Of a stretch of DNA of 35,097 bases, positions 1-13,532 are shown in pieces (the stretch's first letter is position 1; the number at the start of each line of letters is the position of its first letter). The stretch is from the NCBI GenBank assembly GCA_039795655.1, contig JBDKLK010000001.1, forward strand, positions 1 through 35,097. Reading direction: 5' to 3'. The stretch is from Actinomycetota bacterium (lineage in GTDB: Bacteria > Actinomycetota > Actinomycetes > S36-B12 > UBA5976). A model generated the notes under the pieces. That model did no database searches. It was given only the letters and a program-made list of their open reading frames with translations, and was not told the origin of the DNA. A program made the translations under genes and the position numbers.

Positions 1-1
1 A

Positions 2-412
2 AATGACAAGCGATCAATTTTTGGACTAGAGCTTGAAAGAAAGAATCTCGGCACACACATAGGTGCAGATTTACGAGATAAGAGTTGTCCTGTTTGTGGC
101 CATGACAGTTTGGTAATGGGCTCCACTACAGGTGGAACTTTTTGTCGGAATATACCAATTTGTGAATTCTTAGCTCCTAAATGCGAATGTGGAAATCGAA
201 TGATTTACACAGGTCAAGATTCACAAAGGTTTTACTGTTCAGCACATCCGGAAAACGAGTTTCCTCAATGTCCAGAGTGTTCTTGGGGCGTCCTTGTTCC
301 AAGGGTGAACTCAAAAACACTGGAATCTTTCACCATATGTCACGCAAAGCGCTATGCACATAAGCCATCAGTCATCAAAAAGTATAAGAAGAAGCACATA
401 GTTTTTGAATAA
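2..412 (+). CDS. 3' end of a larger gene whose start lies left of the window. The encoded tail carries three Cys-rich zinc-ribbon modules (topoisomerase-type C4 zinc-finger-like).
   Basis: Frame 2 is open from nt 2, with no stop and no ATG/GTG/TTG before 110, so the 110 start in the ORF track is a window-edge artefact. The translation reads ...DKSCPVCGHDSLVMGSTTGGTFCRNIPICEF (CxxC-x15-C-x5-C), then CECGNRMIYTGQDSQRFYCSAH..QCPECSWGVLVPRV..ICHAKRYAH. Confidence 0.55.
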   Translation, partial: NDKRSIFGLELERKNLGTHIGADLRDKSCPVCGHDSLVMGSTTGGTFCRNIPICEFLAPKCECGNRMIYTGQDSQRFYCSAHPENEFPQCPECSWGVLVPRVNSKTLESFTICHAKRYAHKPSVIKKYKKKHIVFE

Positions 413-451
413 GGACTATGAAAAAGGTCGGCGCTCTGAAAAGATAGTCTT

Positions 452-2512
452 TTGCATCAAGAACGTGGGGTTTATGTGGATTTCAAAGATCTAGAACGTA
501 AAGCGAAAGCTGGAGATCCAGCAGCAGCTTTTGAGTATGGCAAAAAGAGTATTGAACGCGGGTACGAAGAAATTGGTCGTAAATGGTTGCAATTCGCGAT
601 TGAAAAAGGCTCTGTCGAAGCTTCTCTTGAGCTCGCAAGAATTCTAAACCTGGCAGGCGATAAAGATGGAGCAAGAAAAGCACTTGTTCTAGCGACTAAT
701 GCAATGCATCCAATGTCTTTCTTCACCGCGGGCATGATTTATCTTTCAGAACAAGACTTTCAGATGGCTGAAGCACTATTCAGATTGGCTCATCAACATG
801 GAGTGGAAGCTGCACTTGAACTTGCAGAAGGAATGCAAATATTTCGATTAGGACAACAAATTGAGAATAAGCAACACCTGAAGCTTGAAGCTGAAGTTGA
901 AAACATACTTGGACACAAAGTTGCCAAGGAAGGAAATTTTGAGGTCAGAAAAAATTGGTGGATAGATTGGTTTCCACCTAACTATGCACCAGAAAATCTA
1001 AGAAAAGCAGGCAAGGCTTACATTCGTGACTTTGATTGGCAGATTTCACAACTAACGATTTACTCTGCCAAACGCGAAAATCTTTCGCATTGGAATGAAC
1101 AGGTCGCGCGCTACGGTAGTGAAGAAAAAGCTGCAGCGAAGGTTTGTAGTGATCCGATTGCACTCCAAAGGGCTGTTGGGTTTGTTGAAGCAAACAACAT
1201 TGCAGAATTTCTCGGTTTAAAAAGTAATATGGAGAGAAAGTTCTCCCAACTAAGCGACGACAACATTCAAGGTCAGTTGCCAAATTATCTGAGCGAACAA
1301 GCGAAAATTTACTTGCGACTTAATCCAGAGGCTGTCCACAGAATTTTGACAATGATTTGTTACTTACTTTGGTCTGATGCTCCAAGAAACAACAAGCTGT
1401 TTGAATCAGAAGCAGCATTAAGTTTTGAATATGAAAATGGTAAATTAGAGTCAGCTGAAAAGAATCACCTCCAAGAACTGCGGCAAGAAATAGAGGACAA
1501 GCAACTTGTGGACTTTCAGATTCTGGAAAGAAACAGAAGCATGGTGCACCACTTTTCGAATGCATTCCCGCAAACAGGACATACACACCTAAAAGGCATG
1601 TGGCCACTCGCAGGCTGGAACGGCGCTGGCAATAGAAAACGAGTTTCTGGATGCACAGTCAATTTCCGAAATGGTGGATGGCATTGTGAAGTAGATCAAT
1701 TTGAAGAAACAGACTCAAGTTCACTTCCAGAGATTCCGCATCAAGTCATTCCTTCAAGAATTGCTAAAAATGCTGTCAAGAAAGTTGCTAAGAAAGTGGT
1801 TAAGGCAAGTCCACCATCCAAAAAAGTAATAGCAAAGAAAATGCCAGCAAAAAAGATAGCTCCAGCAAAGAAGATTACGAATATAAATAAGGCTATGCCA
1901 GCTAAGAAAATCGTTAAGAAAGCCGCTTTGCCAATCAAGAAATCAAATCCTCCGATGCCAAGCTTCGAGAATCTGGAAATGAATGGTTCAGAATTGACTT
2001 TGTCCAGATTGATTGACATCGCAGTTCAAAAAGGGGATCTCCCAATTCCGAAAGCTGCGCCTGGTTGGCAGGATAGAAAAATCGAGATTGGACCGATTGG
2101 TGGAAGGGTTCGGACTAGTGGTTGGATGTTGTTGTTCACCTTCAGCCTTGGAAAAATTTCTGGCAAGGGTGGCGTCTCGAATACCGTTGAGAAGATTGCA
2201 GCTCCTTTCCCGCCAGAAGTGAGAATCTCTGGAACATTAGCTCCTCAGCCAGAACTCACACTTCATATCGCGATACCTGGAACTCCAACTGATGATGATA
2301 GAGCTGTAACACAAACTTTCATCCAAGTGGCAAATGTCGTAGTAGATGTTTTAAGAGTCGCGATAGAAACAGGCACTTTGATTGAACCAACGGAGCAAGC
2401 CTTAGGCGCGATTGGGTTAGTTAAACCCGCATTCATCGTTAGCAAACATAAATCAAGAAACTGGAATGACAGAAACCTCGGCGGAAAATTGCTCTACGGT
2501 GAGAGCCAATAA
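452..2512 (+). CDS. Sel1-like repeat protein with an internal Lys/Ala/Pro-rich basic tract and uncharacterised middle and C-terminal domains
   Basis: 686-aa ORF starting at TTG 452; in-frame GTG 476 is an alternative start. The N-terminal ~130 aa show Sel1/TPR-like helical pairs (WLQFAIEKGSVEASLELARIL; LFRLAHQHGVEAALELAEGM). aa 437-497 form a basic tract with 21 Lys in 61 residues. The stop TAA overlaps the ATG of the next gene (TAATG, 2510-2514). Confidence 0.6.
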   Translation: MHQERGVYVDFKDLERKAKAGDPAAAFEYGKKSIERGYEEIGRKWLQFAIEKGSVEASLELARILNLAGDKDGARKALVLATNAMHPMSFFTAGMIYLSEQDFQMAEALFRLAHQHGVEAALELAEGMQIFRLGQQIENKQHLKLEAEVENILGHKVAKEGNFEVRKNWWIDWFPPNYAPENLRKAGKAYIRDFDWQISQLTIYSAKRENLSHWNEQVARYGSEEKAAAKVCSDPIALQRAVGFVEANNIAEFLGLKSNMERKFSQLSDDNIQGQLPNYLSEQAKIYLRLNPEAVHRILTMICYLLWSDAPRNNKLFESEAALSFEYENGKLESAEKNHLQELRQEIEDKQLVDFQILERNRSMVHHFSNAFPQTGHTHLKGMWPLAGWNGAGNRKRVSGCTVNFRNGGWHCEVDQFEETDSSSLPEIPHQVIPSRIAKNAVKKVAKKVVKASPPSKKVIAKKMPAKKIAPAKKITNINKAMPAKKIVKKAALPIKKSNPPMPSFENLEMNGSELTLSRLIDIAVQKGDLPIPKAAPGWQDRKIEIGPIGGRVRTSGWMLLFTFSLGKISGKGGVSNTVEKIAAPFPPEVRISGTLAPQPELTLHIAIPGTPTDDDRAVTQTFIQVANVVVDVLRVAIETGTLIEPTEQALGAIGLVKPAFIVSKHKSRNWNDRNLGGKLLYGESQ
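1760..1945 (+). repeat. Low-complexity coding repeat encoding a histone-H1-like (M)PAKKI/AKKV basic tract
   Basis: Translation is IAKNAVKKVAKKVVKASPPSKKVIAKKMPAKKIAPAKKITNINKAMPAKKIVKKAALPIKK. The DNA units atgccagc(a/t)aa(a/g)aa recur. Confidence 0.8.
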
Positions 2513-4194
2513 TGCCTAGCAAAATCTTTCCAGCAGACTTCGATATCGAGTTGCTCAATGAATCAGAGAAAAAAGTTCTGGAAGTGCTCATTAAAAAACT
2601 GCCTGATGATTCACGTGTTTATCCCTCAGTAGATGGGTTTGCGAGATTCACAAGAAGAGAAATTGATTTTGTTGTTGTGATCCCTGGTGCAGGTGTTGCT
2701 CTTCTTGAAGTAAAAAACGGATTTGAACTCAAAGACGGGAAATGGACTCAATATGATCGCACCAAAAATAAACGTGATTATTTGAATGTTTCGTTGCAAC
2801 TAGACGCTGAAAGAGAACTATTCCAAATACTTATAGATTCATATCTACATCGCAGATCGCAACCGAGATTTGTTTCTTTTCTAGTGTTAACGGACCTAAA
2901 CCTAGAAAGCAATCAAGTTGTTCCTAAAGACATTGAACGAAGTCGAATTATCCCCAAGAATCAACTAGAACATATTGTCAGCATTGTTTCACAATACCTG
3001 AATGCAAATAAAGGTGTGAATCCTTGTGATGATTACACAATAGAGAAAATAAACGATGCAATTCTCAACCGTGGTGATTTATATGAAGATTTCGTTAAGA
3101 ACACTTCATACAGAGCTGAAACTGTAGAGTCATTGACAATGGAACAAGCTTTCGTTCTAGACATGTTGGAAGACAATTCCCGCGTATATATAAACGGTGG
3201 CCCAGGTACCGGTAAAACTATTTTGGCAATAGAAATGGCACATAAACTCAGTTCCCAAGGGAAAAAAGTAGGGCTGGTTTGTTTTAACCATGGTCTTTCC
3301 TACGAAATCAAGAATCGAATTTTGGGCTGGAACCAAGAACTCACTTTTCAAGGAACTGTTAAAGAGGGATTGGCAGAATATCTCGGTGTCTCGCTTCCAG
3401 TAGTCCCAGAGGGTCAAAAGAAAATAGACCACTATTGGGAAAAAATGGTTCCAAAACTTATAAAGCGTGCTTCTCGAAAACTTGCAAAAGAGAAGAAATT
3501 TGATGCTTGGGTAGTTGACGAGGCTCAAGACATTTCACCGCAAGAACTTGAAAATCTCGAACGACTTTTGCAAGATAAAAAGAATGGCGCTATTTATCTG
3601 TTTGGCGATCCAAGACAGAATATTTTCAAGATAAAGAGCTCAGTTCCTTGGCATCTAGCACACGCACGCCTCATGTTTAATGTTCGTTGTACGGCATCCA
3701 TTGCAAACCTGCTAAATGCACTCACTCCAAACACAAAATCGATTTTTGTAGGTGACACTTCACGTCGACTCCCCGCTTATGTAGTTGTTGAGAACAGAGA
3801 TGAAATTGAAGACGGCGTAGACGAGGCAATCAAACTTCTGCTCAAATCAAATTGGGAGAAGCGAAATATTGCAGTAGTTGCCACTGGTCAGAGACTTGCG
3901 AAACACGATGAACATCGAAAGACGATTGGGACTGATAATGAATACTGGTCTGATTTCATAAATGCCAACGACGTCTTCTACTCAAGGTTGATGGCATTCA
4001 AAGGGTTGGAAAGACCGGCTGTTGTGGTTGCGTTCAATTCCGAATCTCAAAATGATGAAGAAATCAAGGAACTACTTTTCACCGCGGCGGGTCGTGCGCG
4101 AGATGAGCTAGTTTTAGTCTTAACTAAAAGTGATCTTGACTTTTTAAAAGACCTGAAGGAATTAGTGGTCGATTATCGAATTTCTAGTAAGTAG
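2512..4194 (+). CDS. NERD-domain (PD-(D/E)xK nuclease-like) protein fused to a compact SF1 UvrD/RecD-like helicase/ATPase
   Basis: 560-aa ORF. N-terminal NERD-like signature REIDFVVVIPGAGVALLEVKNG. Walker A INGGPGTGKT, Walker B WVVDEAQDI, LFGDPRQ, and C-terminal FKGLERPAVVV and FTAAGRARDELVLV. The start overlaps the upstream stop, with a GGTGAGAG purine run just upstream. Confidence 0.8.
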   Translation: MPSKIFPADFDIELLNESEKKVLEVLIKKLPDDSRVYPSVDGFARFTRREIDFVVVIPGAGVALLEVKNGFELKDGKWTQYDRTKNKRDYLNVSLQLDAERELFQILIDSYLHRRSQPRFVSFLVLTDLNLESNQVVPKDIERSRIIPKNQLEHIVSIVSQYLNANKGVNPCDDYTIEKINDAILNRGDLYEDFVKNTSYRAETVESLTMEQAFVLDMLEDNSRVYINGGPGTGKTILAIEMAHKLSSQGKKVGLVCFNHGLSYEIKNRILGWNQELTFQGTVKEGLAEYLGVSLPVVPEGQKKIDHYWEKMVPKLIKRASRKLAKEKKFDAWVVDEAQDISPQELENLERLLQDKKNGAIYLFGDPRQNIFKIKSSVPWHLAHARLMFNVRCTASIANLLNALTPNTKSIFVGDTSRRLPAYVVVENRDEIEDGVDEAIKLLLKSNWEKRNIAVVATGQRLAKHDEHRKTIGTDNEYWSDFINANDVFYSRLMAFKGLERPAVVVAFNSESQNDEEIKELLFTAAGRARDELVLVLTKSDLDFLKDLKELVVDYRISSK

Positions 4195-4242
4195 TTCTCT
4201 AAACGAGTCTCAATACTATAGTTCTTCATTCCTTGAAAAAAT

Positions 4243-6162
4243 CTAGAAATTTTCTGTTTGTATCCATTCAGATAAGCAATCACCTATACCTTGATGATTT
4301 TCAGCATCAAAAACGCTGATTGAATCTTCACCTAATCCTTGGGTAAGAATGTCTGTAATTGAATTTTCCGATTTGGAGTAATGTAGTTTGCTAGCACTTG
4401 GATCATCAATCTCACCTTTTATAACCAAGTTAACGAGAACTGCATTCCATCCTGTATCCCCCTTCTTCCTAAGTACTCTTCCCATTCTTTGAGTAACAAC
4501 TGTTTTTGAGGGTTTATGTGTGCCCATAAACACTGCTATTCGAGAGTATGGGATATCTACACCTTCATCAAGGATTTTTGGTGCACAAACCGCATCAAGC
4601 TCTCGCTTTCTCTCATCAACCGGCGCGAGTTTCGTGTTTAGAATTGTTGGTCGATCAAAAAGCACGTCCTCACCGTGCATTTCTATAGACCGCACTTTTA
4701 AGTTGAGTAAGAGATCATTGACTTCGGTCATTACTTGTTTGGTATCGCAAAAAATCAGAGTTCTTCCAGTTTGTCTTAATAGTTGTTGAATAGCTTTTAT
4801 TCCTGCTAGTTTGTCTGCTTTTGCAAGAACTTCAAAGTAGTCCTTTAGACTTGATTTATATTTCTGAGCATGTCCCAATTCATCCTCATTTAATCGGATA
4901 ATTTGATCGACTTCTTCATCGAGTGTAGAGCTGGTCTTAAGTTTACGTTTCCAGCCAAATAAATCGTTTTTTGCTAATTGAAGTCTATCTGCTGCTTTTC
5001 TGAATTTTAGTTTGTCATGAATATTACTCTGACACGCAATTGTAATTACCTTGTATTTCGCAACTACATTATCTTCTACTGCGGCTGGATATGAATAATT
5101 AAAAGTAATAGTTTGATTAAAAAATCTAAACAATTTATAGGCATTCGGCCCATCACTTCCTAAATATGCGGTGAGACCTATGGCTTCTTGGTAGTTATCA
5201 ATCAAGATATTCGACCAAGTTTCAGAAGCATAATGATGAACTTCATCAATGACGATTAGTGGCCGCATTCGTTTTTCTGGGTGTTTTTCACTCTTACTTA
5301 CTAGAGATTGAACAAGGGCAACAAGAATGTTTGGACCTTGACCATTCCAGCCGGCGTAGTGACTCTTCCCGTGCATAGAGAATAAATTGAAACTCCCACT
5401 TCTATCAATTTGATAGTGCCTGAAAGGACTTACAGATGCGTTATTGCTCTCTTTGAATGAATCTTCTATCCATTGATCTAGTAGCAATTTACGATGTGTA
5501 ACAACTACAACAGGACGATTCTCAGATATAGCTTCCAAAATGCACAGCAACCCTAGAAGTGTTTTTCCACTACCAGTGGCAGCTTCGATTATCGACTTAC
5601 GCCCGTGAGATGCCCAACTTAGGAGAGCACGATTTTGCCATGTTCGAATTTCGCCGAATGAAGAAAGAAAATCCAAATATTTATTGTCAACTTTCCACTC
5701 TCTACAATGAAACAGGAGAGAAATAAGGAGAAGCATCCCTTCCACCGTAAGATTTGGATACATTTCGCCAGAATTGAAAGAAATATATAGTGTGATATCA
5801 ATTTTGGTGAGATCACTATGAATTGGACAAGTGAAATCCTTCAATTCTTTTTTGTAATCTCGAATTTCACTTGAAAACTTTTTATTATGGACAGCCAAAA
5901 GCACTAAAAGTTTTGATAGTTGACAAGTGCTCTGGTATACAAATCTTTTTGCTGATTGTTCTTCATAAATATCAAGATTGAACTTCCCATTTTCATCAAT
6001 CATCCATGTCACATTTGACGTCATTTTCTCAATTCGGACTTTTAGTTGACTTCCAATAGCTTTTTCAAAATCGAAATCATTTTCGAAATTCAAGTCAAGA
6101 TTTAATTCATTAAAACTTAAACCATATTTTTCAACTAATTCATACAAAGCATCAGTTTGCAT
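4243..6162 (-). CDS. SF2 DEAD/DEAH-box (ResIII-type) helicase with an unassigned ~175-aa N-terminal domain
   Basis: 639-aa ORF. Motif I AATGSGKTLLGL, motif II VIDEVHHY, helicase-C segment TLIFCDT..LDEGVDIP, motif VI QRMGRVLR. It is convergent with the NERD-helicase gene across a 48-nt gap. Confidence 0.8.
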   Translation of the reverse strand: MQTDALYELVEKYGLSFNELNLDLNFENDFDFEKAIGSQLKVRIEKMTSNVTWMIDENGKFNLDIYEEQSAKRFVYQSTCQLSKLLVLLAVHNKKFSSEIRDYKKELKDFTCPIHSDLTKIDITLYISFNSGEMYPNLTVEGMLLLISLLFHCREWKVDNKYLDFLSSFGEIRTWQNRALLSWASHGRKSIIEAATGSGKTLLGLLCILEAISENRPVVVVTHRKLLLDQWIEDSFKESNNASVSPFRHYQIDRSGSFNLFSMHGKSHYAGWNGQGPNILVALVQSLVSKSEKHPEKRMRPLIVIDEVHHYASETWSNILIDNYQEAIGLTAYLGSDGPNAYKLFRFFNQTITFNYSYPAAVEDNVVAKYKVITIACQSNIHDKLKFRKAADRLQLAKNDLFGWKRKLKTSSTLDEEVDQIIRLNEDELGHAQKYKSSLKDYFEVLAKADKLAGIKAIQQLLRQTGRTLIFCDTKQVMTEVNDLLLNLKVRSIEMHGEDVLFDRPTILNTKLAPVDERKRELDAVCAPKILDEGVDIPYSRIAVFMGTHKPSKTVVTQRMGRVLRKKGDTGWNAVLVNLVIKGEIDDPSASKLHYSKSENSITDILTQGLGEDSISVFDAENHQGIGDCLSEWIQTENF

Positions 6163-6248
6163 TGTCCCCCAATAACTTTCAAATGTATGAGAAAATCAGA
6201 GGCAATGATGTCACCATTTGTAGTTCATCTCAAGAACATTGTTGCTAA

Positions 6249-7016
6249 CTAACCCTTAGAAATACTCGAGTTTGTCCAGGTAGAAATACGACGAGGTGCG
6301 CGACCAGTGACGCGAGCTGCTTTGCGATAAAGCATCGCTGGTTTGCCTACTCCGACGCTACGTGTTTCGCCCAGTGGTTCTAGGTAACGCTCGAAAGTTC
6401 TGCGGAAGGCGTCACGCGAATAAACCTCACGGCCCAAGACAGCGCAATGCACTTCAAACAGGTCTGGCATAGTGAAAATTTCATCTAGGAAATTGCGCGG
6501 ATCGATTTCTTTGAAGTATTTGCTACGCAAGTAATCGATAGCTGCATCAATAATTTTTTGGTGATCGAGTGGCAGCACAGCTTGTGAGTTACTAAACCGG
6601 ATTTCGTGGTCATCCACGATTGCAAGTGTTCGGTGTTCTGGATCTTGCGAGACTGCTTCGAGAGCAACCTTGTATGGCACCGCCACAACGTGACCAACCG
6701 ACATAGTCCAACCGCGCGGGTCGCGTTTTGGGTCATCGAGTACGAGGAGCTGGCGGGGAGTGAAACCGATGATGCCAGCTTTTTCTGCCAGGCAGATGGT
6801 CGCGGATTCGGCTAGGCGCTGGTGTTCGCGGACGAAACGACCGGGAATCATCCACTTGTCAGCCTGGAAACCTTCATCCCTACGGACGAGCAGAGTCTGG
6901 AGCGTGCGCTCGCCGGATTCGTCTGGGTCGCTCACGGTCAAAATGGCAATATCGACGGCCATATGAACGCCTGGAAAGCCGTCTAGACTCTCAAAATCAC
7001 TATATGTCAGGGTCAT
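6249..7016 (-). CDS. nrtR: NrtR-family transcriptional regulator (non-canonical Nudix domain + C-terminal winged helix)
   Basis: 255-aa ORF. Nudix fold with degenerate box GRFVREHQRLAESATICLAEKAGI, an RDPRGW segment, and a C-terminal FTMPDLFEVHCAVLGREVYSRDAFRRTFERYLEPLGE..GKPAMLYRK typical of the NrtR wHTH. There is no Shine-Dalgarno, and a TAATAT hexamer ends 6 nt upstream of the ATG. Confidence 0.7.
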   Translation of the reverse strand: MTLTYSDFESLDGFPGVHMAVDIAILTVSDPDESGERTLQTLLVRRDEGFQADKWMIPGRFVREHQRLAESATICLAEKAGIIGFTPRQLLVLDDPKRDPRGWTMSVGHVVAVPYKVALEAVSQDPEHRTLAIVDDHEIRFSNSQAVLPLDHQKIIDAAIDYLRSKYFKEIDPRNFLDEIFTMPDLFEVHCAVLGREVYSRDAFRRTFERYLEPLGETRSVGVGKPAMLYRKAARVTGRAPRRISTWTNSSISKG

Positions 7017-7022
7017 GTGGCA

Positions 7023-7028
7023 ATATTA
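7023..7028 (-). promoter_or_regulatory. Possible -10 hexamer (TAATAT on the minus strand) for a leaderless nrtR transcript
   Basis: Forward atatta at 7023-7028 reads TAATAT on the minus strand. It sits 6 nt from the A of the ATG at 7016, and no SD lies between them. Confidence 0.3.
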
Positions 7029-7035
7029 ATTCGTA

Positions 7036-7099
7036 TTCGCAATTAATCCAAATAGGAATCTGAGAGCAAATGTCAGGGACCCTGTGCTATAATTGCGGA
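7036..7099. promoter_or_regulatory. Pair of inverted 10-mers (TAATTGCG(A/G)A), a candidate operator for the adjacent NrtR-like regulator
   Basis: Forward ttcgcaatta (7036-7045) is the reverse complement of taattgcgaa. Forward taattgcgga lies at 7090-7099, a 9/10 match. The second copy overlaps the -10 box and continues into the small palindrome TGCGgaatCGCA (7094-7105). The first copy lies inside ATTAATT-n9-AATTAAT (7025-7047). Confidence 0.4.
7085..7093 (+). promoter_or_regulatory. Extended -10 promoter element TGcTATAAT for the phosphatase operon
   Basis: Perfect TATAAT at 7088-7093 is preceded by TGc, 65 nt upstream of ATG 7158. GGGAGG Shine-Dalgarno at 7147-7152. Confidence 0.45.
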
Positions 7100-7157
7100 A
7101 TCGCACAAATTAAGTCTCAAACTAAAGAGTGCGCAGTTAACTAAACGGGAGGAAAAC

Positions 7158-7757
7158 ATGGCGAATTCGCCAAAACAGCACGAACCAGAGAGTCACCCAG
7201 AAGCACTTACACGCCCAGCGGCCCCGAAGTGGTTCAACTACGAAGATCCAATTTGGTCTGAAATCGTTCCAGGCCTTTGGCAAGGTGGAACTAACGATGT
7301 GGACATTGTTGGCAATCCACTACCAGCTCCAATCATCTCGGCAGAAAACTTCGACACCGTCGTAACAATGTATGCCTACGCAAATCCGGTTGATTGGTTC
7401 GTAAAAGAATTGCGTTTCGCAATTTATGACCACGACATTGAACACTTCGATCTCGAAGAACTGTTTAGCGTTGTGAAGTTTGCACACGCAGACTGGAAAA
7501 AAGGCAAGCGAGTTTTGGTTCGCTGCCAGGCAGGACTAAATCGTTCAGGTCTTGTCACCGCGTTGATTTTGATTCGCGATGGTTACACACCACAAGAAGC
7601 AATCACAAAACAACGTCTCAATCGCGATGCTTCAGTTTTGTTCAACCAACGTTTCGAAAAATGGTTGATGAATCTCGATGTTGATGTGTGGAGAGCTGAT
7701 GTTTATCCATCAACTTCTTCGTCCCCAGACAATGTTGATTCAAGGTCTGCCGCATAA
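7158..7757 (+). CDS. Cys-based dual-specificity (PTP-superfamily) phosphatase
   Basis: 199-aa ORF with a strong SD. It has the DSP-like IVPGLWQGG segment, an intact P-loop VLVRCQAGLNRSGLV (CX5R-S, nt 7524-7547) and upstream acidic residues (YDHDIEHFD) as general-acid candidates. Confidence 0.75.
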   Translation: MANSPKQHEPESHPEALTRPAAPKWFNYEDPIWSEIVPGLWQGGTNDVDIVGNPLPAPIISAENFDTVVTMYAYANPVDWFVKELRFAIYDHDIEHFDLEELFSVVKFAHADWKKGKRVLVRCQAGLNRSGLVTALILIRDGYTPQEAITKQRLNRDASVLFNQRFEKWLMNLDVDVWRADVYPSTSSSPDNVDSRSAA

Positions 7758-7823
7758 CAGAAGTTAAAACTTCATAACAACTAAATATAACAACCTAAAC
7801 TTAGAAAGAAGTTGATAAACAAA

Positions 7824-8777
7824 ATGACCACTTATGTTCATCCGTTCCACATTGGTCGTGGAACAACAATTGGTCCTCTGACCATTTTCCCGATCTGGAG
7901 TGAAGTGCAACAAGCAATGCCATTCCAGATGCCTGCTGACTTTAATATGTCAGTACTTGAAGAAAAGCGCCCAACAGTGCAATCACTTCGAGTTGAAAAT
8001 ACTTCTAATCAAGGCTTATTGATTCCGGAAGGAACAATCCTTGATGGCGGTATGCAAACCCGTGTTGCAATTCGCGACATTTTCGTGGAAGGCGGTGAAA
8101 GCATGAACCTCGATGTGCGTTGTGTTGAACGCGGTCGATGGAATGGAGCTCGCGAACATGCTGTCGATGGTCGCGCACCAATCAGCGTTGTAGCTGCATT
8201 GCGTGGAATCGGTTTGCGTGACTATGCATCACAAGAAAATGTTTGGAATCGCGTAAGCCGTCTTGAAGGCCATTACGGTTCACGTTCAACCAATTCATTG
8301 CTAGACATCATGAGCGATGAAGGTGTGAACACTCGCCGCGAACGCCAAAGCCGCGACCGACGCAGTCACCGCCGTTTGATTGATCCAGCAATCGTTAGTG
8401 AAATCACTGAGTTTTCACGCAAACCATTGCCAGGCCAACAAGGCGTGATGATTGGTGTGGCTGGCCATCCGGTTGTGCTTGAAATTATGGGTACTCCAGA
8501 AGTATTTGCAGATCAGTACGCATCTATCTTGAACGCAATCACTTTGGATGCAAGCACCCTTGAATACAAACCAACTTCAGGGCGTCGAGCTCGTGCATTC
8601 GCAGCCGAAATCCTGAGTACACCAATAGAAGTAATTGCTGAATCAAGCAACTCACTTTCTTTCGCGGGTGCTAGTCAGCTGACTGACATCCGTTCTATTG
8701 CGAGCATCGACGGCGGCGCTGTCCCTTTCCACACCGCCGTGATTAATCGCAAGCACGAATTGGCGCTGGCCGTTTAG
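7824..8777 (+). CDS. DUF6569 / ARPP-1-like protein of unknown function
   Basis: ATG 7824 is preferred over the in-frame TTG 7812 of the ORF track. N-terminal GPLTIFPIW and VRCVERGRW (nt 8121-8141) match my recollection of this family's signatures. It also has an Arg-rich linker RRERQSRDRRSHRR and a C-terminal GVMIGVAGHPVVLEIMG..ILNAITLDA segment. The family assignment is from memory and not verified. Confidence 0.55.
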   Translation: MTTYVHPFHIGRGTTIGPLTIFPIWSEVQQAMPFQMPADFNMSVLEEKRPTVQSLRVENTSNQGLLIPEGTILDGGMQTRVAIRDIFVEGGESMNLDVRCVERGRWNGAREHAVDGRAPISVVAALRGIGLRDYASQENVWNRVSRLEGHYGSRSTNSLLDIMSDEGVNTRRERQSRDRRSHRRLIDPAIVSEITEFSRKPLPGQQGVMIGVAGHPVVLEIMGTPEVFADQYASILNAITLDASTLEYKPTSGRRARAFAAEILSTPIEVIAESSNSLSFAGASQLTDIRSIASIDGGAVPFHTAVINRKHELALAV

Positions 8778-8809
8778 TCCTTTCGTAGGCCAAGCCCAAT
8801 TCGTTAAAA

Positions 8810-8840
8810 GGGTGGAGCAGTTCGGGGGAATGCTCCACCC
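8810..8840 (+). terminator. GC-rich hairpin, a possible intrinsic terminator or attenuator after the ARPP-1-like gene
   Basis: GGGTGGAGCA (8810-8819) pairs perfectly with TGCTCCACCC (8831-8840) across an 11-nt loop. It is followed by accacTTTTc, only a short T run. Confidence 0.45.
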
Positions 8841-8875
8841 ACCACTTTTCTACACATATATATAAGGAGTCGCCC

Positions 8876-9208
8876 ATGTGGGTATTTTCAGAAACTGGCT
8901 TCATCAGCGCCATCTCCAAGTCTGGTGATTTGTTCCAAGTTCGCGCCCGAGATCGTCAATCTCTAGAAGACCTAGCGGTGAGCACCGGTCTCGAAATCAT
9001 CAAAACACCACAAGGTGATTACCCATACCGCGTGGAACTTGCCCGCGAGCAGTTCGTCACCTGGATGATTGAACAAATGGAAGCTATCGATTACAACAAC
9101 TTCAAATCTCGCGTGCATGACACCCGCGGATATGAATTTGTCAGCCCTCTCCACCAAGTTTGGAGCATCATGCACGAAGTAGAAGATAAGGAAGCACGCA
9201 CAAAATAA
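8876..9208 (+). CDS. Hypothetical 110-aa acidic protein
   Basis: Strong AAGGAG SD 8 nt upstream of ATG 8876. GC is about 55 % in a hand-counted sample, like the genes to its left. I recognise no motif. Confidence 0.6.
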   Translation: MWVFSETGFISAISKSGDLFQVRARDRQSLEDLAVSTGLEIIKTPQGDYPYRVELAREQFVTWMIEQMEAIDYNNFKSRVHDTRGYEFVSPLHQVWSIMHEVEDKEARTK

Positions 9209-10260
9209 TGAACCCAGAACCCGCTAGTCGAAAATCAAAGAATCTATTCCTCAGAAGAGATGTCGTCATTGAAACTTCTTTTGGCTATTTTGCGCGTTTT
9301 AAATTAACTGAATGGAATCTAATCAACGACCAAGTCCGAGTTCTATATAAACCTCGTCGTCGAGATGTGGTTTCACCACGTGAAGCTTTTTATAAACGAA
9401 TGCTAGATGCGGCTAACTTACCTCAGAGGGAGACCACTGAATTACCGCTTGAAGCAGGTGAAACTATCTCCATACATAGATTTGGTGATTGGATCTTCAA
9501 AGTAAATCTAAATGGATTCCTTGATTACTCTGAAGCTGAAATCGGTGACATTCTGGAAATTCACTTCCGAGTGATTAATGGAATTTTTGAAAAAGTTGAA
9601 CTGGCAATTGTGGATCTTGAAGATAGAAGAGTAGACATCAACTTCGCTGACATTGTCATGCAAACGGCACTTATTCAAAATGATCCAATCTGGCGAGCTG
9701 GCGCAGCGCTGATCGAAAAAGCATTGCGTCTAACCAATCCCGAAGATCCGATGTTTTCTGGACACCAAACTGGCTCACTTAGTTTTTGGTCATACAGAAG
9801 TTACAACGCACAGGAAGAAATTTATGTTCAGTGGCGCTGGAATTCTGTGGGTGAGCTTTATGTTGAGGCAGTCTCAAATAAATACGCGTGGCCAAAGATT
9901 CCAGTAGACGGCATAAACCATCTATTGGAAACAGGATGGAGTGGTCCATCCGATGATGAAGAAGAAGACTTGCCAAACTATTTCCGCACATATGAAGAAG
10001 TAGACGCGAAAATAATTGCCGATGAACTAATGAAAGTTTTCCGCGATGTTTATTTCATCAAGCGAGATTGGATCTGGTTATTCCAGCCATTTCATCTTGT
10101 TGAGCGACTTCTAAGTGGTAGGGATGAAGATGACTTTAGATTCAAACCTGATGCCTTCTTTATTTACGACGAAGAACAAACTTTCAAACGTCGTTGCGAA
10201 ATGGGCGTGCAGCTCAGCGAAGATGTCATCATCCCAAGTCATTTGCGTCCGCTGAGTTAG
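9208..10260 (+). CDS. Hypothetical 350-aa protein whose C-terminal half is possibly YbjN / TY-Chap chaperone-like
   Basis: The ATG overlaps the upstream TAA (TAATG, 9206-9210). The segment YVEAVSNKYAWPKIPVDGINHLLETGWSGPSDDEEEDLPNYFRTY resembles the YbjN-type fold signature as I remember it. The N-terminal half is unassigned and AT-rich. Confidence 0.45.
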   Translation: MNPEPASRKSKNLFLRRDVVIETSFGYFARFKLTEWNLINDQVRVLYKPRRRDVVSPREAFYKRMLDAANLPQRETTELPLEAGETISIHRFGDWIFKVNLNGFLDYSEAEIGDILEIHFRVINGIFEKVELAIVDLEDRRVDINFADIVMQTALIQNDPIWRAGAALIEKALRLTNPEDPMFSGHQTGSLSFWSYRSYNAQEEIYVQWRWNSVGELYVEAVSNKYAWPKIPVDGINHLLETGWSGPSDDEEEDLPNYFRTYEEVDAKIIADELMKVFRDVYFIKRDWIWLFQPFHLVERLLSGRDEDDFRFKPDAFFIYDEEQTFKRRCEMGVQLSEDVIIPSHLRPLS

Positions 10261-10377
10261 CAGTTGTCTCTATCACAACGCAAAACAAATTTGAAGCACT
10301 TATAGATGAATACAGCACCTTTTCATAGTTTTCATTGCATTTCTGGTTAAAATAGTTTCAATCAACCCAGGAGAGTC

Positions 10378-12042
10378 ATGATTTCAACATCTAGGAAATT
10401 ACTAATCGCTGCCATCGGAATCATTCTGATCTCATTTGGCCTTGGAACACCTGCCAAAGCAATGCCTTCAGATTGGGACTTCGAGTTTGAACCAAATCTG
10501 ATTACTCAAGGTCAAGCAGCCGTTGTAGTTCTATTTATTGAAGAGTGCTCTACCGCTCCGACAAATTTTGAAGTTAACTTTAGAAATAACAAAGAAAAAT
10601 ATAAGTTGACCAAGTCCAACTGGAGTTTCAAACAGACAATTGCAGAAGGAAACTACACAGCATCATGGGTTTTCACCGGTAAAGGCAATGCTGGAGTCAA
10701 AGCAGGGTATGTTGCATTTGATGCGAAGGTATCAGGTGGCTGCGCAGAAGAAGAAATTTACGGCGATGACTATGAAAGCGTCACAACTGCAAAAGATCCA
10801 ATTTCTGTTGATTGGATTTCTGATTTTTCAATCGCCCCTGACTACTTGGGAATCAAAGCTGGCTGGACTCCTGTGGAATCTGCCATCAAGTATGAAGTTC
10901 AAATCGGTAAAACAGCTGATGAGATTGTGTGGCAAGAGGTCGGCGAAACCAATAATCATCTAATCAGCATTTCAGCTGAAGAATTCAACTTGGATTATGG
11001 ATTCGAGTATGAAATTAGAGTGAGACCAGTATTTAAGAAATCCAAAGGTGAATGGACTGGAAGCAATGGTTGGTGGGGATACGAATCACGTGTCCAAGCT
11101 TGGACTTCATTAGTTGGAGATTCAGATCGCACTGAAGTTACAGAATTTGAAGATGCTGAAGATATTCAATTCAACTATAAAGTTGAAAACTGTCCTGATC
11201 CATCCGAATTTTATGAACCGTGGACTGTCGTAAATGAAATTTCATCTAAGAATGAGATGGGGATTTCAGGAGATGATTACTTAGGTTTGAATGAGTATTC
11301 AAACTCATCAGAATTCACAAACTATAATTTTGATGATACAGGAAATGACCTCATCGTAAGTTGGCAAACTAACCTTGATTTGTCCCCACAAACTTACCAA
11401 TGGGGACAATATTTCGCTGTGCAAACTGGCTGCATTCGCGATAACACTGATTCTCAATTTATAAATACCTGGCCATTCAGCGAGTACTCATATTTCAAGA
11501 TAGTAAAAAATGGAAAAGTCGCTCCGATAACGCTCAATAATGATTCAGCCACAACCCACAGCACAGAATCTTCAATTTTGTTTAAGTGGGGCGCACCACT
11601 CAATTCAAATGATGGCCCTTTCACTTATGAGATTTACGATACAAACTTGTCAGAGGATGTGGCTGACTGGGATTTGTTGAAAACAACATCAAAGCGCAGT
11701 TACCTGATGAAAAATTTGGTGGCTGACCAAGAAGTTTCACTAGGAGTAATTGTCCGTAATTCAGCTGGAACCTCAACTATGGAATTATGGACGAGCACTA
11801 GCAGTGTTATTGCAAAAATGAAAAGTTCAATATCCAAGCAGACTCTAGCTAAGAGACTCGGATTGTCACGATATGCAATTTCAATATCTGCCACAAAACT
11901 TGACAACGTTGTGAATGCCTGCAAGATCTCCAAGAAAAGCATCAAATTTGGTTCAAAAATTGGTGTTTGTGCAGTTCGTTACACCTGGAAAGAAGATGGG
12001 GAAGACAAGTCCGCAACTTCGTACATCTGGACGAAGAAATAG
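10378..12042 (+). CDS. Secreted surface protein with fibronectin type III-like domains
   Basis: AGGAGAG SD and signal peptide MISTSRKLLIAAIGIILISFGLGTPAKA. FN3-like segments (GWTPVESAIKYEVQIG...YEIRVRPV; ILFKWGAPLNSNDGPFTYEIYD...VIVRNSAGTS). Very low GC (about 27 % in one sample). Confidence 0.65.
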   Translation: MISTSRKLLIAAIGIILISFGLGTPAKAMPSDWDFEFEPNLITQGQAAVVVLFIEECSTAPTNFEVNFRNNKEKYKLTKSNWSFKQTIAEGNYTASWVFTGKGNAGVKAGYVAFDAKVSGGCAEEEIYGDDYESVTTAKDPISVDWISDFSIAPDYLGIKAGWTPVESAIKYEVQIGKTADEIVWQEVGETNNHLISISAEEFNLDYGFEYEIRVRPVFKKSKGEWTGSNGWWGYESRVQAWTSLVGDSDRTEVTEFEDAEDIQFNYKVENCPDPSEFYEPWTVVNEISSKNEMGISGDDYLGLNEYSNSSEFTNYNFDDTGNDLIVSWQTNLDLSPQTYQWGQYFAVQTGCIRDNTDSQFINTWPFSEYSYFKIVKNGKVAPITLNNDSATTHSTESSILFKWGAPLNSNDGPFTYEIYDTNLSEDVADWDLLKTTSKRSYLMKNLVADQEVSLGVIVRNSAGTSTMELWTSTSSVIAKMKSSISKQTLAKRLGLSRYAISISATKLDNVVNACKISKKSIKFGSKIGVCAVRYTWKEDGEDKSATSYIWTKK

Positions 12043-12121
12043 TTAATAACTATTCCTTCATTTTCGGAGATTTTGCGTAGAAATTCGGCAACCTCTTCTA
12101 TAGGTGCCCTTTAGGCAAACC

Positions 12122-12136
12122 TAGACTGCTAGTCTA
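12122..12136. promoter_or_regulatory. Small palindrome TAGACTgctAGTCTA upstream of the propeller/FN3 gene
   Basis: 6-bp perfect arms with a 3-nt spacer, 23 nt upstream of ATG 12159. Its function is unknown. Confidence 0.2.
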
Positions 12137-12158
12137 CGTTCACAATCGGAGGATAAAT

Positions 12159-13532
12159 ATGAAAAAACTTTTGTCATTTAGCCTGCTCGCTACTTTGGTG
12201 TTCTCAGTAGCAGTGGCTTACCCATCAAGCGCTAGCACATCAAGTGCAACCGGTCTTGCAATGGCGACTACAGATGGTTACCTAACAGACTTCGCTATCA
12301 GCAGCGATGGAAAATACATGTACACAGCAACTTCTGCTGGAGTTCCATACACAACAAATGAAGATTTGCTTTTGAAGATCGATACCAGCAACTTCGAAAT
12401 TGTTGACACACTTCAACTTGAGTCAGGATTCGATGTTTACGCAATCAGCATTAACCCGGACGACTATTTCATTTATGTCGGTGGCTATAACGGCGATGTA
12501 ATTGCAGTGGAAACTGAAGAACTAACTTTGTCCGATTCAGTTCAATTGGAAGAGCCATACCAAAATGTTCTTAACAGCGTTGTGAGCGCTGACGGCGAAT
12601 TCCTTTACCTAACAACTGATTCAGGTTATGTTGTAAAAGTTAGACTTCAAAATGGTCTTGCTGTTGAAGATACTCTTCACTTGACAGACGGCTCAGCTGT
12701 TTACGCAGGATTCCTTTCTGCTGACGACGCAACTGGCTATTTCATTAAATCGGTTTGGGAATCTAATCAAGCACCAGTTGTCTATAAAGTTAATCTTTCA
12801 AATATGACCGAAACCTCACATGCAAACCTAAATGTTGGTGAGGGCTACATCATGGACTTTATGCCGATCTCAAATACAGAAGGCGCATACATAACAAATG
12901 CTGCCGATTCAACTTTGATTATGGCCGTTGTAAATCTTTCAACTTTGGGAGTAACCACACATGACATCAGTGATGGGTATCAGTTCCACGGGCCATCAGC
13001 AATTTCTGCTGACAAAAAAACTATCTACACATTTCCTGGCAACGATAGTGTTTACCAGCCGCTAGAAATCGATGTTGCAACAAGAACATTAAGGCAACAG
13101 TACTATTTCTTGGGAGAATGGCAAGAAAATGTCTCGAGCGCATTCGTTAACCCTGTTTCTGGCGATGTTTATATTTCTTACGGTGAAGTTTGGTTCGCGG
13201 ACTGGTCAGCAATTTACACACCATCAGGTGTGGACATAATCATTGCAGCTCCGAAAGCCCCGGGTGCGCCAAGAAGCGTCAAAGCTGTTTACGCTCCAAA
13301 GAAAACCACTTTCTCATGGGCAACACCTGCAAATGATGGTGGTGCAGAAATCACAGGTTACAAATACTGCTACCTAAAGTGCACTAAGGCTGCGAGCTGG
13401 AAAACCACCACAAAGAAAACTGTGGTGATCAAAGGTATTGCTAAAGGCACCTCAGGCACATTCGAAGTTCGTGCTGTAAATAGCGTTGGTGCAGGCGAGA
13501 TTAAGAAGCTTAAATTCAAGCAAGCTAAATAA
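12159..13532 (+). CDS. Secreted YVTN-type beta-propeller protein with a C-terminal FN3 domain
   Basis: GGAGGA SD and signal peptide MKKLLSFSLLATLVFSVAVAYPSSAS. Repeated blades (DGKYMYTATSAG, DDYFIYVGGYNGDVIAV, DGEFLYLTTDSGYVVKV, DKKTIYTFPGND, SGDVYISYGE). C-terminal FN3 (APGAPRSVKAVYAPKKTTFSWATPANDGGAEITGYKY...FEVRAVNSVGAG). Confidence 0.7.
   Translation: MKKLLSFSLLATLVFSVAVAYPSSASTSSATGLAMATTDGYLTDFAISSDGKYMYTATSAGVPYTTNEDLLLKIDTSNFEIVDTLQLESGFDVYAISINPDDYFIYVGGYNGDVIAVETEELTLSDSVQLEEPYQNVLNSVVSADGEFLYLTTDSGYVVKVRLQNGLAVEDTLHLTDGSAVYAGFLSADDATGYFIKSVWESNQAPVVYKVNLSNMTETSHANLNVGEGYIMDFMPISNTEGAYITNAADSTLIMAVVNLSTLGVTTHDISDGYQFHGPSAISADKKTIYTFPGNDSVYQPLEIDVATRTLRQQYYFLGEWQENVSSAFVNPVSGDVYISYGEVWFADWSAIYTPSGVDIIIAAPKAPGAPRSVKAVYAPKKTTFSWATPANDGGAEITGYKYCYLKCTKAASWKTTTKKTVVIKGIAKGTSGTFEVRAVNSVGAGEIKKLKFKQAK

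Follow-up and report, generated by a model that had tools for sequence, protein, structure and literature searches.

A rare multi-domain protein encoded with a NERD-SF1 nuclease-helicase in a likely anti-phage island of an uncultured low-GC actinobacterium

Three co-directional genes at the contig end

The stretch of DNA analyzed here (the window) spans the whole of contig JBDKLK010000001.1 (35,097 bp), from a metagenome-assembled genome (MAG) of an uncultured actinobacterium, and the subject is a block of three genes at its left end (Table 1; the proteins are deposited as RLZZ330_1, RLZZ330_2 and RLZZ330_3). Gene 3 encodes a fusion of a NERD nuclease with a superfamily 1 (SF1) helicase, gene 2 a protein that belongs to no named family, and gene 1, cut by the contig end, the predicted tail of another helicase. 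A preliminary description of this DNA, prepared from the sequence alone, had listed three co-directional genes separated by a 39-nt gap and by an overlapping TAATG junction, and the coordinates of the three open reading frames (ORFs) bear this out. The ORFs run in the same direction, the first one being open at the contig end; the spacing between genes 1 and 2 is 39 nt when TTG 452, the start in the NCBI annotation, is accepted; and TAATG at positions 2510-2514 contains both the stop codon of gene 2 and the start codon of gene 3, with an overlap of 1 nt. Most of the 39-nt gap is occupied by a mini-ORF of 9 codons with an ATG start (ATGAAAAAGGTCGGCGCTCTGAAAAGATAG, positions 418-447), and the in-frame GTG 476 aligns better than the annotated TTG 452 with the start of P0124, the full-length homolog of gene 2 (here and below, related proteins are denoted by P numbers and their loci by L numbers). 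A promoter and terminator scan, which performed at or below chance level and is uninformative, showed no terminator-like site between genes 1, 2 and 3.

Table 1. Genes 1-8 of the window and the regions of the gene 2 protein
Feature	Position (nt)	Strand	Basis
Gene 1, 3' part, 136 codons, cut by contig end	2..412	+	Translation; relative P0003; Cys/His pattern
Gene 2, 686 aa, rare multi-domain protein	452..2512	+	No family; three multi-domain homologs; AlphaFold2 (AF2) model
Gene 2 aa 11-116, Sel1/TPR-like helical repeats	482..799	+	pLDDT ~85-92; Foldseek matches to Sel1/TPR structures
Gene 2 aa 165-350, all-helical domain	944..1501	+	pLDDT 74-95
Gene 2 aa 377-412, HxH...C-x10-C and beta-hairpin	1580..1687	+	Invariant alignment columns
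Gene 2 aa 431-512, disordered Lys/Ala/Pro-rich tract (H1-like/PAKKA-like)	1742..1987	+	Composition; pLDDT <50
Gene 2 aa 515-686, conserved alpha/beta C-terminal module	1994..2509	+	pLDDT 80-93; Foldseek
Gene 3, 560 aa, NERD nuclease and compact SF1 helicase	2512..4194	+	Pfam; PADLOC; 702 homologs; invariant residues
Gene 4, 639 aa, SF2 helicase	4243..6162	-	Pfam ResIII 9e-21, Helicase_C
Gene 5, NrtR-like Nudix and winged-helix regulator	6249..7016	-	Pfam NrtR_WHD 2.5e-11
Gene 6, dual-specificity (rhodanese-phosphatase superfamily) phosphatase	7158..7757	+	Pfam DSPc 1.5e-9
Gene 7, ARPP-1 domain protein	7812..8777	+	Pfam ARPP-1 1.8e-39; family described in PMC9503650
Gene 8, TY-Chap3 domain protein	9208..10260	+	Pfam 5.5e-6, 27.5 bits (cut-off 27)

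A Pfam search with the gene 3 protein identifies the NERD domain (aa 17-126, E = 2.2e-9) together with AAA_19, UvrD-helicase and UvrD_C_2, in agreement with the NERD and SF1 assignments made earlier from six short motifs, all of which are present (EIDFVVV at aa 50, LLEVK at 64, GGPGTGKT at 229, VVDEAQD at 334, FKGLERPAVVV at 496 and AAGRARD at 525). Two PADLOC models match over the full length, RTasNERD-Hel (aa 4-540 on positions 3-513 of the 519 in the model, E = 9.6e-29) and the candidate system C3a187, "NERD+UvrD" (E = 3e-20), and gene 3 shares with these NERD+UvrD fusions (PF08378 joined to an SF1 core) the two-domain architecture, the length and the intact catalytic residues. The search for relatives gave 702 matches, mostly of about 550 aa and mostly from Actinomycetota; the same architecture is also encoded on plasmids of several non-actinobacterial phyla. 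Across 16 relatives with 27-48% identity, the invariant residues include E50, D52, E66 and K68 in the NERD domain and, in the helicase, Walker A (G229-K235), D336-E337 of the DEAQD motif, Q369, R392, the KGLE motif and R528. Given this invariance, both activities appear to be under selection. Judged by its sequence, gene 3 belongs, with its motifs intact, to a large, already catalogued actinobacterial family of ~550-aa NERD+SF1 helicases. The start of P0005, the closest relative (L002, positions 7914-9593), is probably called some 29 codons too far downstream; a tblastn alignment of gene 3 with L002 begins at 7920 and restores the N-terminal NERD part.

The RTasNERD-Hel model was derived from cluster 485, which is co-located with 7 of 17 UG34 reverse transcriptases (RTs) (PMC9226505). 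As this is the best PADLOC model for gene 3 and covers its full length, the locus might be considered a degenerate or partial RT system of the UG34/DRT type, in which the NERD-helicase would be an accessory to an RT encoded beyond the left end of the contig. UG34 systems have an RT, however, whereas none lies beside gene 3, which is coupled instead to the 686-aa gene 2 protein. Within the visible contig, no RT domain is found in gene 1, gene 2 or the scanned ORFs; gene 1 is the predicted tail of a helicase; the window contains no detectable tRNA, Rfam family or structured or retron-like non-coding RNA; and no RT was noted among the annotated neighbor loci of the relatives. This explanation seems extremely unlikely.

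Other defence systems share features with gene 3 to different extents. A nuclease combined with an SF1/UvrD-type helicase is the logic of Nhi and of GajB in the Gabija system as well, and the former had been brought up in the preliminary description. The match to the PADLOC Nhi model, however, is confined to the 40 aa surrounding Walker A (aa 218-257, E = 1e-10), so that gene 3 is not assigned to Nhi; for Gabija, the GajB models match part of the helicase core and there is no GajA (OLD/TOPRIM)-like neighbor. NERD nucleases in other architectures are experimentally validated defence effectors, namely HEC-02 (10.1101/2024.01.29.577857) and ZwsA (10.64898/2026.04.06.716636).

The available part of gene 1 contains three Cys/His units (CPVC..Cx5C, CEC..CSAH and CPEC..CH) followed by a short basic tail. 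The only relative of this protein among 5.8 billion clusters is P0003, with 67% identity, and all three units, earlier described as zinc ribbons, are retained in it. P0003 contains UvrD_C/UvrD_C_2 domains and matches positions 564-673 of the 684 in the NCBIfam profile for DNA helicase IV (E = 2e-17), and for this reason gene 1 itself is taken to be an SF1 helicase with a zinc-unit tail, the window holding the predicted C-terminus of a UvrD/helicase-IV-type enzyme with three zinc-binding units. On the 1-kb contig that encodes P0003, the following gene is unrelated to gene 2. Thus, the one available comparison provides no support for a conserved link between genes 1 and 2.

The gene 2 protein and its predicted fold

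The gene 2 protein has no family assignment in Pfam, PADLOC or NCBIfam. An exhaustive HMMER search identified three multi-domain homologs among 1.84 billion representatives, of which P0124 is full-length (38% identity) and P0125 and P0126 are partial. Eight further proteins (P0127-P0133 and P0135) have in common with gene 2 only the C-terminal ~170 aa, located behind other N-termini, some of these with a CxxC...CxxC pattern; in P0130-P0132, this pattern stands ahead of the C-terminal module in place of the HxH...C-x10-C element described below. A word-index search had returned gene 2 alone, but the relatives found by HMMER rule out a strict orphan. A phage origin was likewise rejected, with no match among 50,697 phage records, and the genome and metagenome contig collections yielded no confirmed loci for the relatives of gene 2.

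The AF2 model of this protein has a mean predicted local distance difference test score (pLDDT) of 70.6 and can be divided into five regions (Table 1). For the N-terminal repeats, Pfam scores remain below threshold (Sel1, E = 0.033, 15.2 bits vs 30.7; TPR_2, E = 0.004, 17.5 bits vs 27), so that the Sel1 repeats of the preliminary description are not called by Pfam; the predicted fold, the Foldseek matches and phmmer matches, down to 7e-11, to proteins that Pfam does assign to Sel1/TPR all agree with them. The all-helical domain that comes next shows no similarity to any PDB structure in a Foldseek search (all matches with E>2 and probability <0.15) or to any Pfam family at E<=5.

Directly ahead of the basic tract, the residues H377, H379, C401 and C412 are invariant in the alignment of gene 2 with P0124, P0125, P0126 and P0128, and the AF2 model places a beta-hairpin at aa 401-414. 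This element is a candidate zinc knuckle, a possibility suggested by the residue pattern. The basic tract contains 21 Lys, 12 Ala and 10 Pro residues in 82 aa, in keeping with the histone-H1-like region noted previously; it has a counterpart in P0124 and P0125 and shows a weak NCBIfam match to the Rv3852 family (E = 0.0012).

A Foldseek search started with the model of the C-terminal module identifies YbjN (6vu7), AmyR (5fr7), ExsC (3kxy), SycE and SicP with the probability of 1.0 and template modeling (TM) scores, normalized to the target, of 0.55-0.66. The predicted fold of aa 515-686 thus matches that of YbjN and type III secretion (T3SS) chaperones, that is, the TY-chaperone fold. With the TY-chaperone superfamily (Pfam TY-Chap1-3) the module shares, in the model, a beta-meander sheet with helices on one face; it is set apart by its length of ~170 aa, by a conserved C-terminal extension with the SxNW...G signature, and by the fusion to Sel1-like repeats, a helical domain and a basic tract. 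The earlier statement that the central and C-terminal parts of gene 2 carry no recognizable motif is supported in that gene 2 matches no named family.

Linkage of genes 2 and 3 and the islands of the helicase family

Genes 2 and 3 had been described as obligatorily coupled, and the lack of conserved linkage between homologs of the 686-aa protein and NERD helicases had been named there as evidence against the proposal; this lack of linkage is what the comparison reveals. No relative of gene 2 was detected in ~86 loci of the helicase family, 80 of which were searched with tblastn and a hidden Markov model of the C-terminal module. Conversely, no NERD-helicase lies downstream of P0124, P0128 or P0131, the members with visible downstream DNA: P0124 is followed by non-coding sequence up to the contig end, P0128 by a small ORF on the opposite strand, and P0131 by a 244-aa protein of no recognized type and then by a convergent UvrD-type helicase. 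On present evidence, the pairing of genes 2 and 3 is unique.

In L008 (positions 1-9800), P0124 is divergent from a cluster of DUF499, DUF7680, DUF1156 and SNF2-helicase genes that has the look of a defence-type methylase-helicase system; this contig closes with what may be the 3' part of a tRNA on the minus strand, and ARAGORN makes no call there because of the truncation. In L010 (positions 1-12244), P0131 consists of a gene 2-type C-terminal module with an additional tail of ~100 aa, and the island includes a PLD-SNF2 protein, five consecutive proteins without Pfam matches and the convergent UvrD-type helicase, a protein of 698 aa with an unassigned N-terminus of 200 aa.

The helicase family itself has no fixed partner. 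The 366 neighbor proteins of 75 helicase relatives fall into 292 clusters, and a tightly abutting co-directional upstream gene is present in 11 of the 75 loci, with diverse products (among them an RNase_T-TerB-BRCT fusion, a MazG-like protein, a cyclase-STAND protein, an ABC-type ATPase, a methyltransferase and a TY-Chap protein). Among the close relatives, the helicase of L002 has no co-directional upstream gene, those of L004-6 follow an EVE+NOV_C gene with a 2-nt gap, and in L007 the upstream gene, which encodes a 110-aa protein, overlaps the helicase gene. The islands that harbor the closest relatives include HpaII restriction-modification (RM), ScoMcrA-HNH, EVE-NOV_C, RmuC and T5orf172 genes. 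For example, in a freshwater Actinomycetota MAG (GCA_041181965.1; L004, positions 3974-7794), EVE+NOV_C is coupled to a NERD-helicase 38% identical to gene 3, and the same island encodes ScoMcrA-SBD-HNH, an HpaII-type RM pair, a UvrD-like helicase of 1,095 aa and a protein of 923 aa that matches no Pfam family. The fusion of an RNase_T exonuclease with TerB and BRCT abuts the start of the NERD-helicase in two Geodermatophilaceae, Blastococcus (L012, positions 4700-5998) and Modestobacter (L020, positions 4650-5984).

One further upstream neighbor bears on the arrangement in the window. In Aeromicrobium halocynthiae (L051), a protein with TY-Chap3 and TY-Chap1 domains (positions 4548-5894) is encoded 55 nt upstream of a co-directional NERD-helicase (5956-7620), and a vWA protein is encoded close by on the opposite strand; in L043 and L056, homologs of this TY-Chap protein are separated from the helicase by 1.6-1.7 kb.

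A rival explanation is that genes 1, 2 and 3 are separate elements of one gene each, brought together by chance in one transcription unit within a defence island; gene 3 would then work alone, like, apparently, the majority of its relatives, and gene 2 would have an unrelated role. Such incidental juxtaposition is compatible with the absence of a conserved partner of the helicase (no tightly coupled neighbor in 64 of the 75 loci), with the absence of an adjacent helicase next to P0124 and P0128, and with the different gene that follows P0003. It is less compatible with the 1-nt overlap of stop and start codons, an arrangement that usually indicates co-translation of functionally linked products, with the TY-Chap gene directly upstream of the helicase in L051, which parallels the order of genes 2 and 3, and with P0125 and P0126, both of which do have closely spaced or overlapping co-directional genes downstream (263 and 311 aa, both partial, on contigs ERZ21989587 of 1,815 bp and ERZ21982217 of 3,021 bp, respectively). 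On balance, we consider this explanation possible, if somewhat unlikely.

Composition does not set the block apart from the remainder of the contig. The preliminary description proposed an acquired AT-rich block next to genes of 53-57% GC. Both of its hand counts are correct (31.7% and 35.0%), but they are unrepresentative, 60-nt windows varying with a standard deviation of 6.5 points: positions 1-4194 have 41.3% GC vs 43.5% in the rest of the contig, and the highest gene-scale value to the right of the block is 52% (gene 5), with 53-57% reached nowhere. At third codon positions, GC in genes 1-3 (0.33-0.36) is like that in gdh (0.33) and nagA (0.32). Horizontal transfer is thus rejected as a conclusion from composition, the GC content of the block being native-like in both respects; the search for island-bounding repeats gave only short matches at chance level.

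A native composition would also suit a housekeeping role, in which genes 1 (helicase IV/HelD-like) and 3 act in DNA repair, fork processing or recycling of RNA polymerase and gene 2 is a nucleoid scaffold. Relatives of gene 3 lie on chromosomes and are found widely among Mycobacteriaceae, Gordonia, Rhodococcus and Blastococcus, there are weak NCBIfam matches to HelD and helicase IV, and the Lys-rich tract resembles actinobacterial nucleoid proteins, as the Rv3852 match indicates. However, none of the HelD and helicase IV scores comes near the cut-off of its family (35 bits vs 419), the neighborhoods are highly variable, unlike those of conserved repair operons, RM, McrA-type, EVE and ARG-centric genes are found beside close relatives, and the near absence of gene 2 from sequence space does not fit a core function. 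A housekeeping role therefore appears highly unlikely.

Genes 4-8, ARG-centric systems and a proposed function

Gene 4 is oriented convergently to gene 3 and in the same direction as gene 5. It encodes a superfamily 2 (SF2) helicase whose core aligns with PbeA and Dnd-type helicases (PADLOC PbeA, E = 2e-41), the N-terminal third being unmatched (no Pfam match for the first 170 aa). An assignment to PbeABCD or Dnd was rejected, given that TIGR04095 scores 92 bits vs a cut-off of 600 and that PbeB, PbeC, PbeD, dnd and ssp genes are absent; relatives of gene 4 were not found in the 90 fetched loci.

The products of genes 5-8, a Nudix-helix-turn-helix (NrtR-like) regulator, a phosphatase of the rhodanese-phosphatase/dual-specificity phosphatase (R-P/DSP) type, an ARPP protein and a TY-Chap3 protein, are encoded in one cluster and correspond, by sequence, to the core described for predicted ARG-centric systems. 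The gene 5 protein also matches the NCBIfam ADPR-responsive repressor (NtrR; E = 8e-20, below the cut-off), and gene 6 has a counterpart with 47% identity in L007. An AT-rich dyad (TTAATTCGTATTCGCAATTAA, positions 7026-7046) and a related imperfect element (~7089-7113) are present in the divergent intergenic region between genes 5 and 6; the dyad is a candidate NrtR operator, but it occurs once and is equaled in 22% of shuffled sequences, which is not above chance.

ARG-centric systems are predicted to act against viral ADP-ribosylation (Iyer, Burroughs, Anand, de Souza and Aravind 2022, PMC9503650, section 3.8) and are said in the same paper to accrete restriction endonuclease (REase) nucleases linked to helicases; NERD or SF1 helicases are not named there. 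In the window, the place of the variable REase-fold nuclease with a helicase would be taken by gene 3, with its NERD domain, 2 kb from gene 5, whereas the enzyme that defines such systems, an ADP-ribosylglycohydrolase (ARG) with no ART or sirtuin coupled to it, is not found in the visible contig. According to the preliminary description, the combination of genes 2 and 3 is not known from any named system. This needs qualification: the NERD+UvrD fusion is listed in PADLOC as candidate C3a187 and accompanies UG34 RTs, and genes 5-8 fit the ARG-centric scheme.

Elsewhere, relatives of the helicase recur beside ARG-DSP, NrtR, ARPP and TY-Chap genes, usually on the strand opposite to ARG. In 14 of ~80 loci, a gene with an ARG domain (at least 100 aa of the domain covered) lies no more than 6 kb from the helicase, and 3 partial cases can be added, with varied order and distance; these loci span Geodermatophilaceae, Mycobacteriaceae, Gordonia and uncultured lineages represented by MAGs. 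With ARG genes being, by estimate, few in each genome, 14-17 of ~80 loci is far above random expectation. In L061, for example, the genes beside the helicase encode an ARG-DSPc fusion (ADP_ribosyl_GH, E = 1e-50), an NrtR-like regulator and a calcineurin-like phosphatase, and in L012 an ARPP-1 gene and an NrtR-like gene are located just upstream of the RNase_T-TerB-BRCT/NERD-helicase pair. NrtR-like genes are present in 7 helicase loci. The defence-like context proposed in the preliminary description is supported by these data, and positions 1-10,260 likely represent an anti-phage (conflict) island of an uncultured low-GC actinobacterium, with a defence role that is suggested by gene content.

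To our best judgment, to which we give a little better than even credence, gene 3 encodes the effector and gene 2 an adaptor in an ARG-linked conflict island. Under this scenario, the gene 3 protein would translocate on nucleic acid by means of its ATP-driven SF1 helicase and cut it with the NERD nuclease. The gene 3 family appears to be a self-contained module that lodges by many partners, and unusually often by ARG-centric systems; here, the ADP-ribose system would consist of genes 5-8, with no visible ARG enzyme, and the module might depend on ADP-ribose signaling. The gene 2 protein, translationally coupled to gene 3, would most likely serve as an adaptor or sensor specific to this lineage. 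A ligand of protein or peptide nature (a protein of the phage, for instance, or a host protein that has been ADP-ribosylated) would be bound by its Sel1/TPR repeats and TY-chaperone-like domain, while the HxH...C-x10-C element and the Lys-rich tract would hold the gene 2 protein on DNA. Through a putative physical interaction, this protein may recruit or license the nuclease-helicase. Gene 1 would provide a second helicase with topoisomerase-like zinc units, either as a third subunit or as an independent neighbor. The gene 2-gene 3 pair could then be counted among the variable effector arms, here joined to a cluster for ADP-ribose processing under NrtR regulation.

Several observations weigh against the adaptor and ARG-linked parts of this scenario. 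The TY-chaperone fold of gene 2 was recognized by Foldseek at E ~1e-2, with a model built from a 12-sequence alignment, and no sequence-profile link connects the C-terminal module to any Pfam family at E<=5 or to any PDB profile; an hhalign comparison with TY-Chap3 of gene 8 gives the probability of 0.1%. The pairing of genes 2 and 3 has been seen only once. A tblastn search with an ARG-DSP probe found no ARG gene in the 35-kb contig. In the helicase loci, ARG is on the strand opposite to the helicase in nearly all cases, at a distance of 0.25-5.6 kb, so that the link is at the neighborhood level and could be explained by shared residence in defence islands, and in ~80% of the loci no ARG-centric component is encoded within 6 kb. 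Many of the loci come from related mycobacteria, and the counts are not independent events; this relatedness could contribute to the frequency of ARG genes near the helicase. To our knowledge, no experiment exists on this helicase family or on ARG-centric systems.

A bolder version of the adaptor hypothesis, which we put forward as speculation that is unlikely to be right, is that gene 2 founds a new class of chaperone-type sensors that are tethered to DNA by a zinc knuckle and a Lys-rich tail, read a phage or ADP-ribosylated protein and switch on a NERD nuclease-helicase. If true, the nuclease arm of ARG-centric systems would be "chaperone-guided", and the order of the TY-Chap and helicase genes in Aeromicrobium would be a second instance.

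Under the favored scenario, the locus would represent a new adaptor protein in a predicted conflict system that is built on an already catalogued nuclease-helicase family. ARG-centric systems have so far been purely computational predictions; with a putative chaperone-fold adaptor and a NERD-helicase next to an NrtR-regulated phosphatase/ARPP/TY-Chap cluster, the locus is a compact test case for the trigger and action of their nuclease/helicase "second line". Should the adaptor not gate the nuclease, the NERD-helicase would be a free-standing module and the 686-aa protein a lineage-specific oddity. If it does, a protein-sensing route would be added to nuclease-helicase immunity, and a function would be assigned to a widespread family of actinobacterial genes, including the mycobacterial members.

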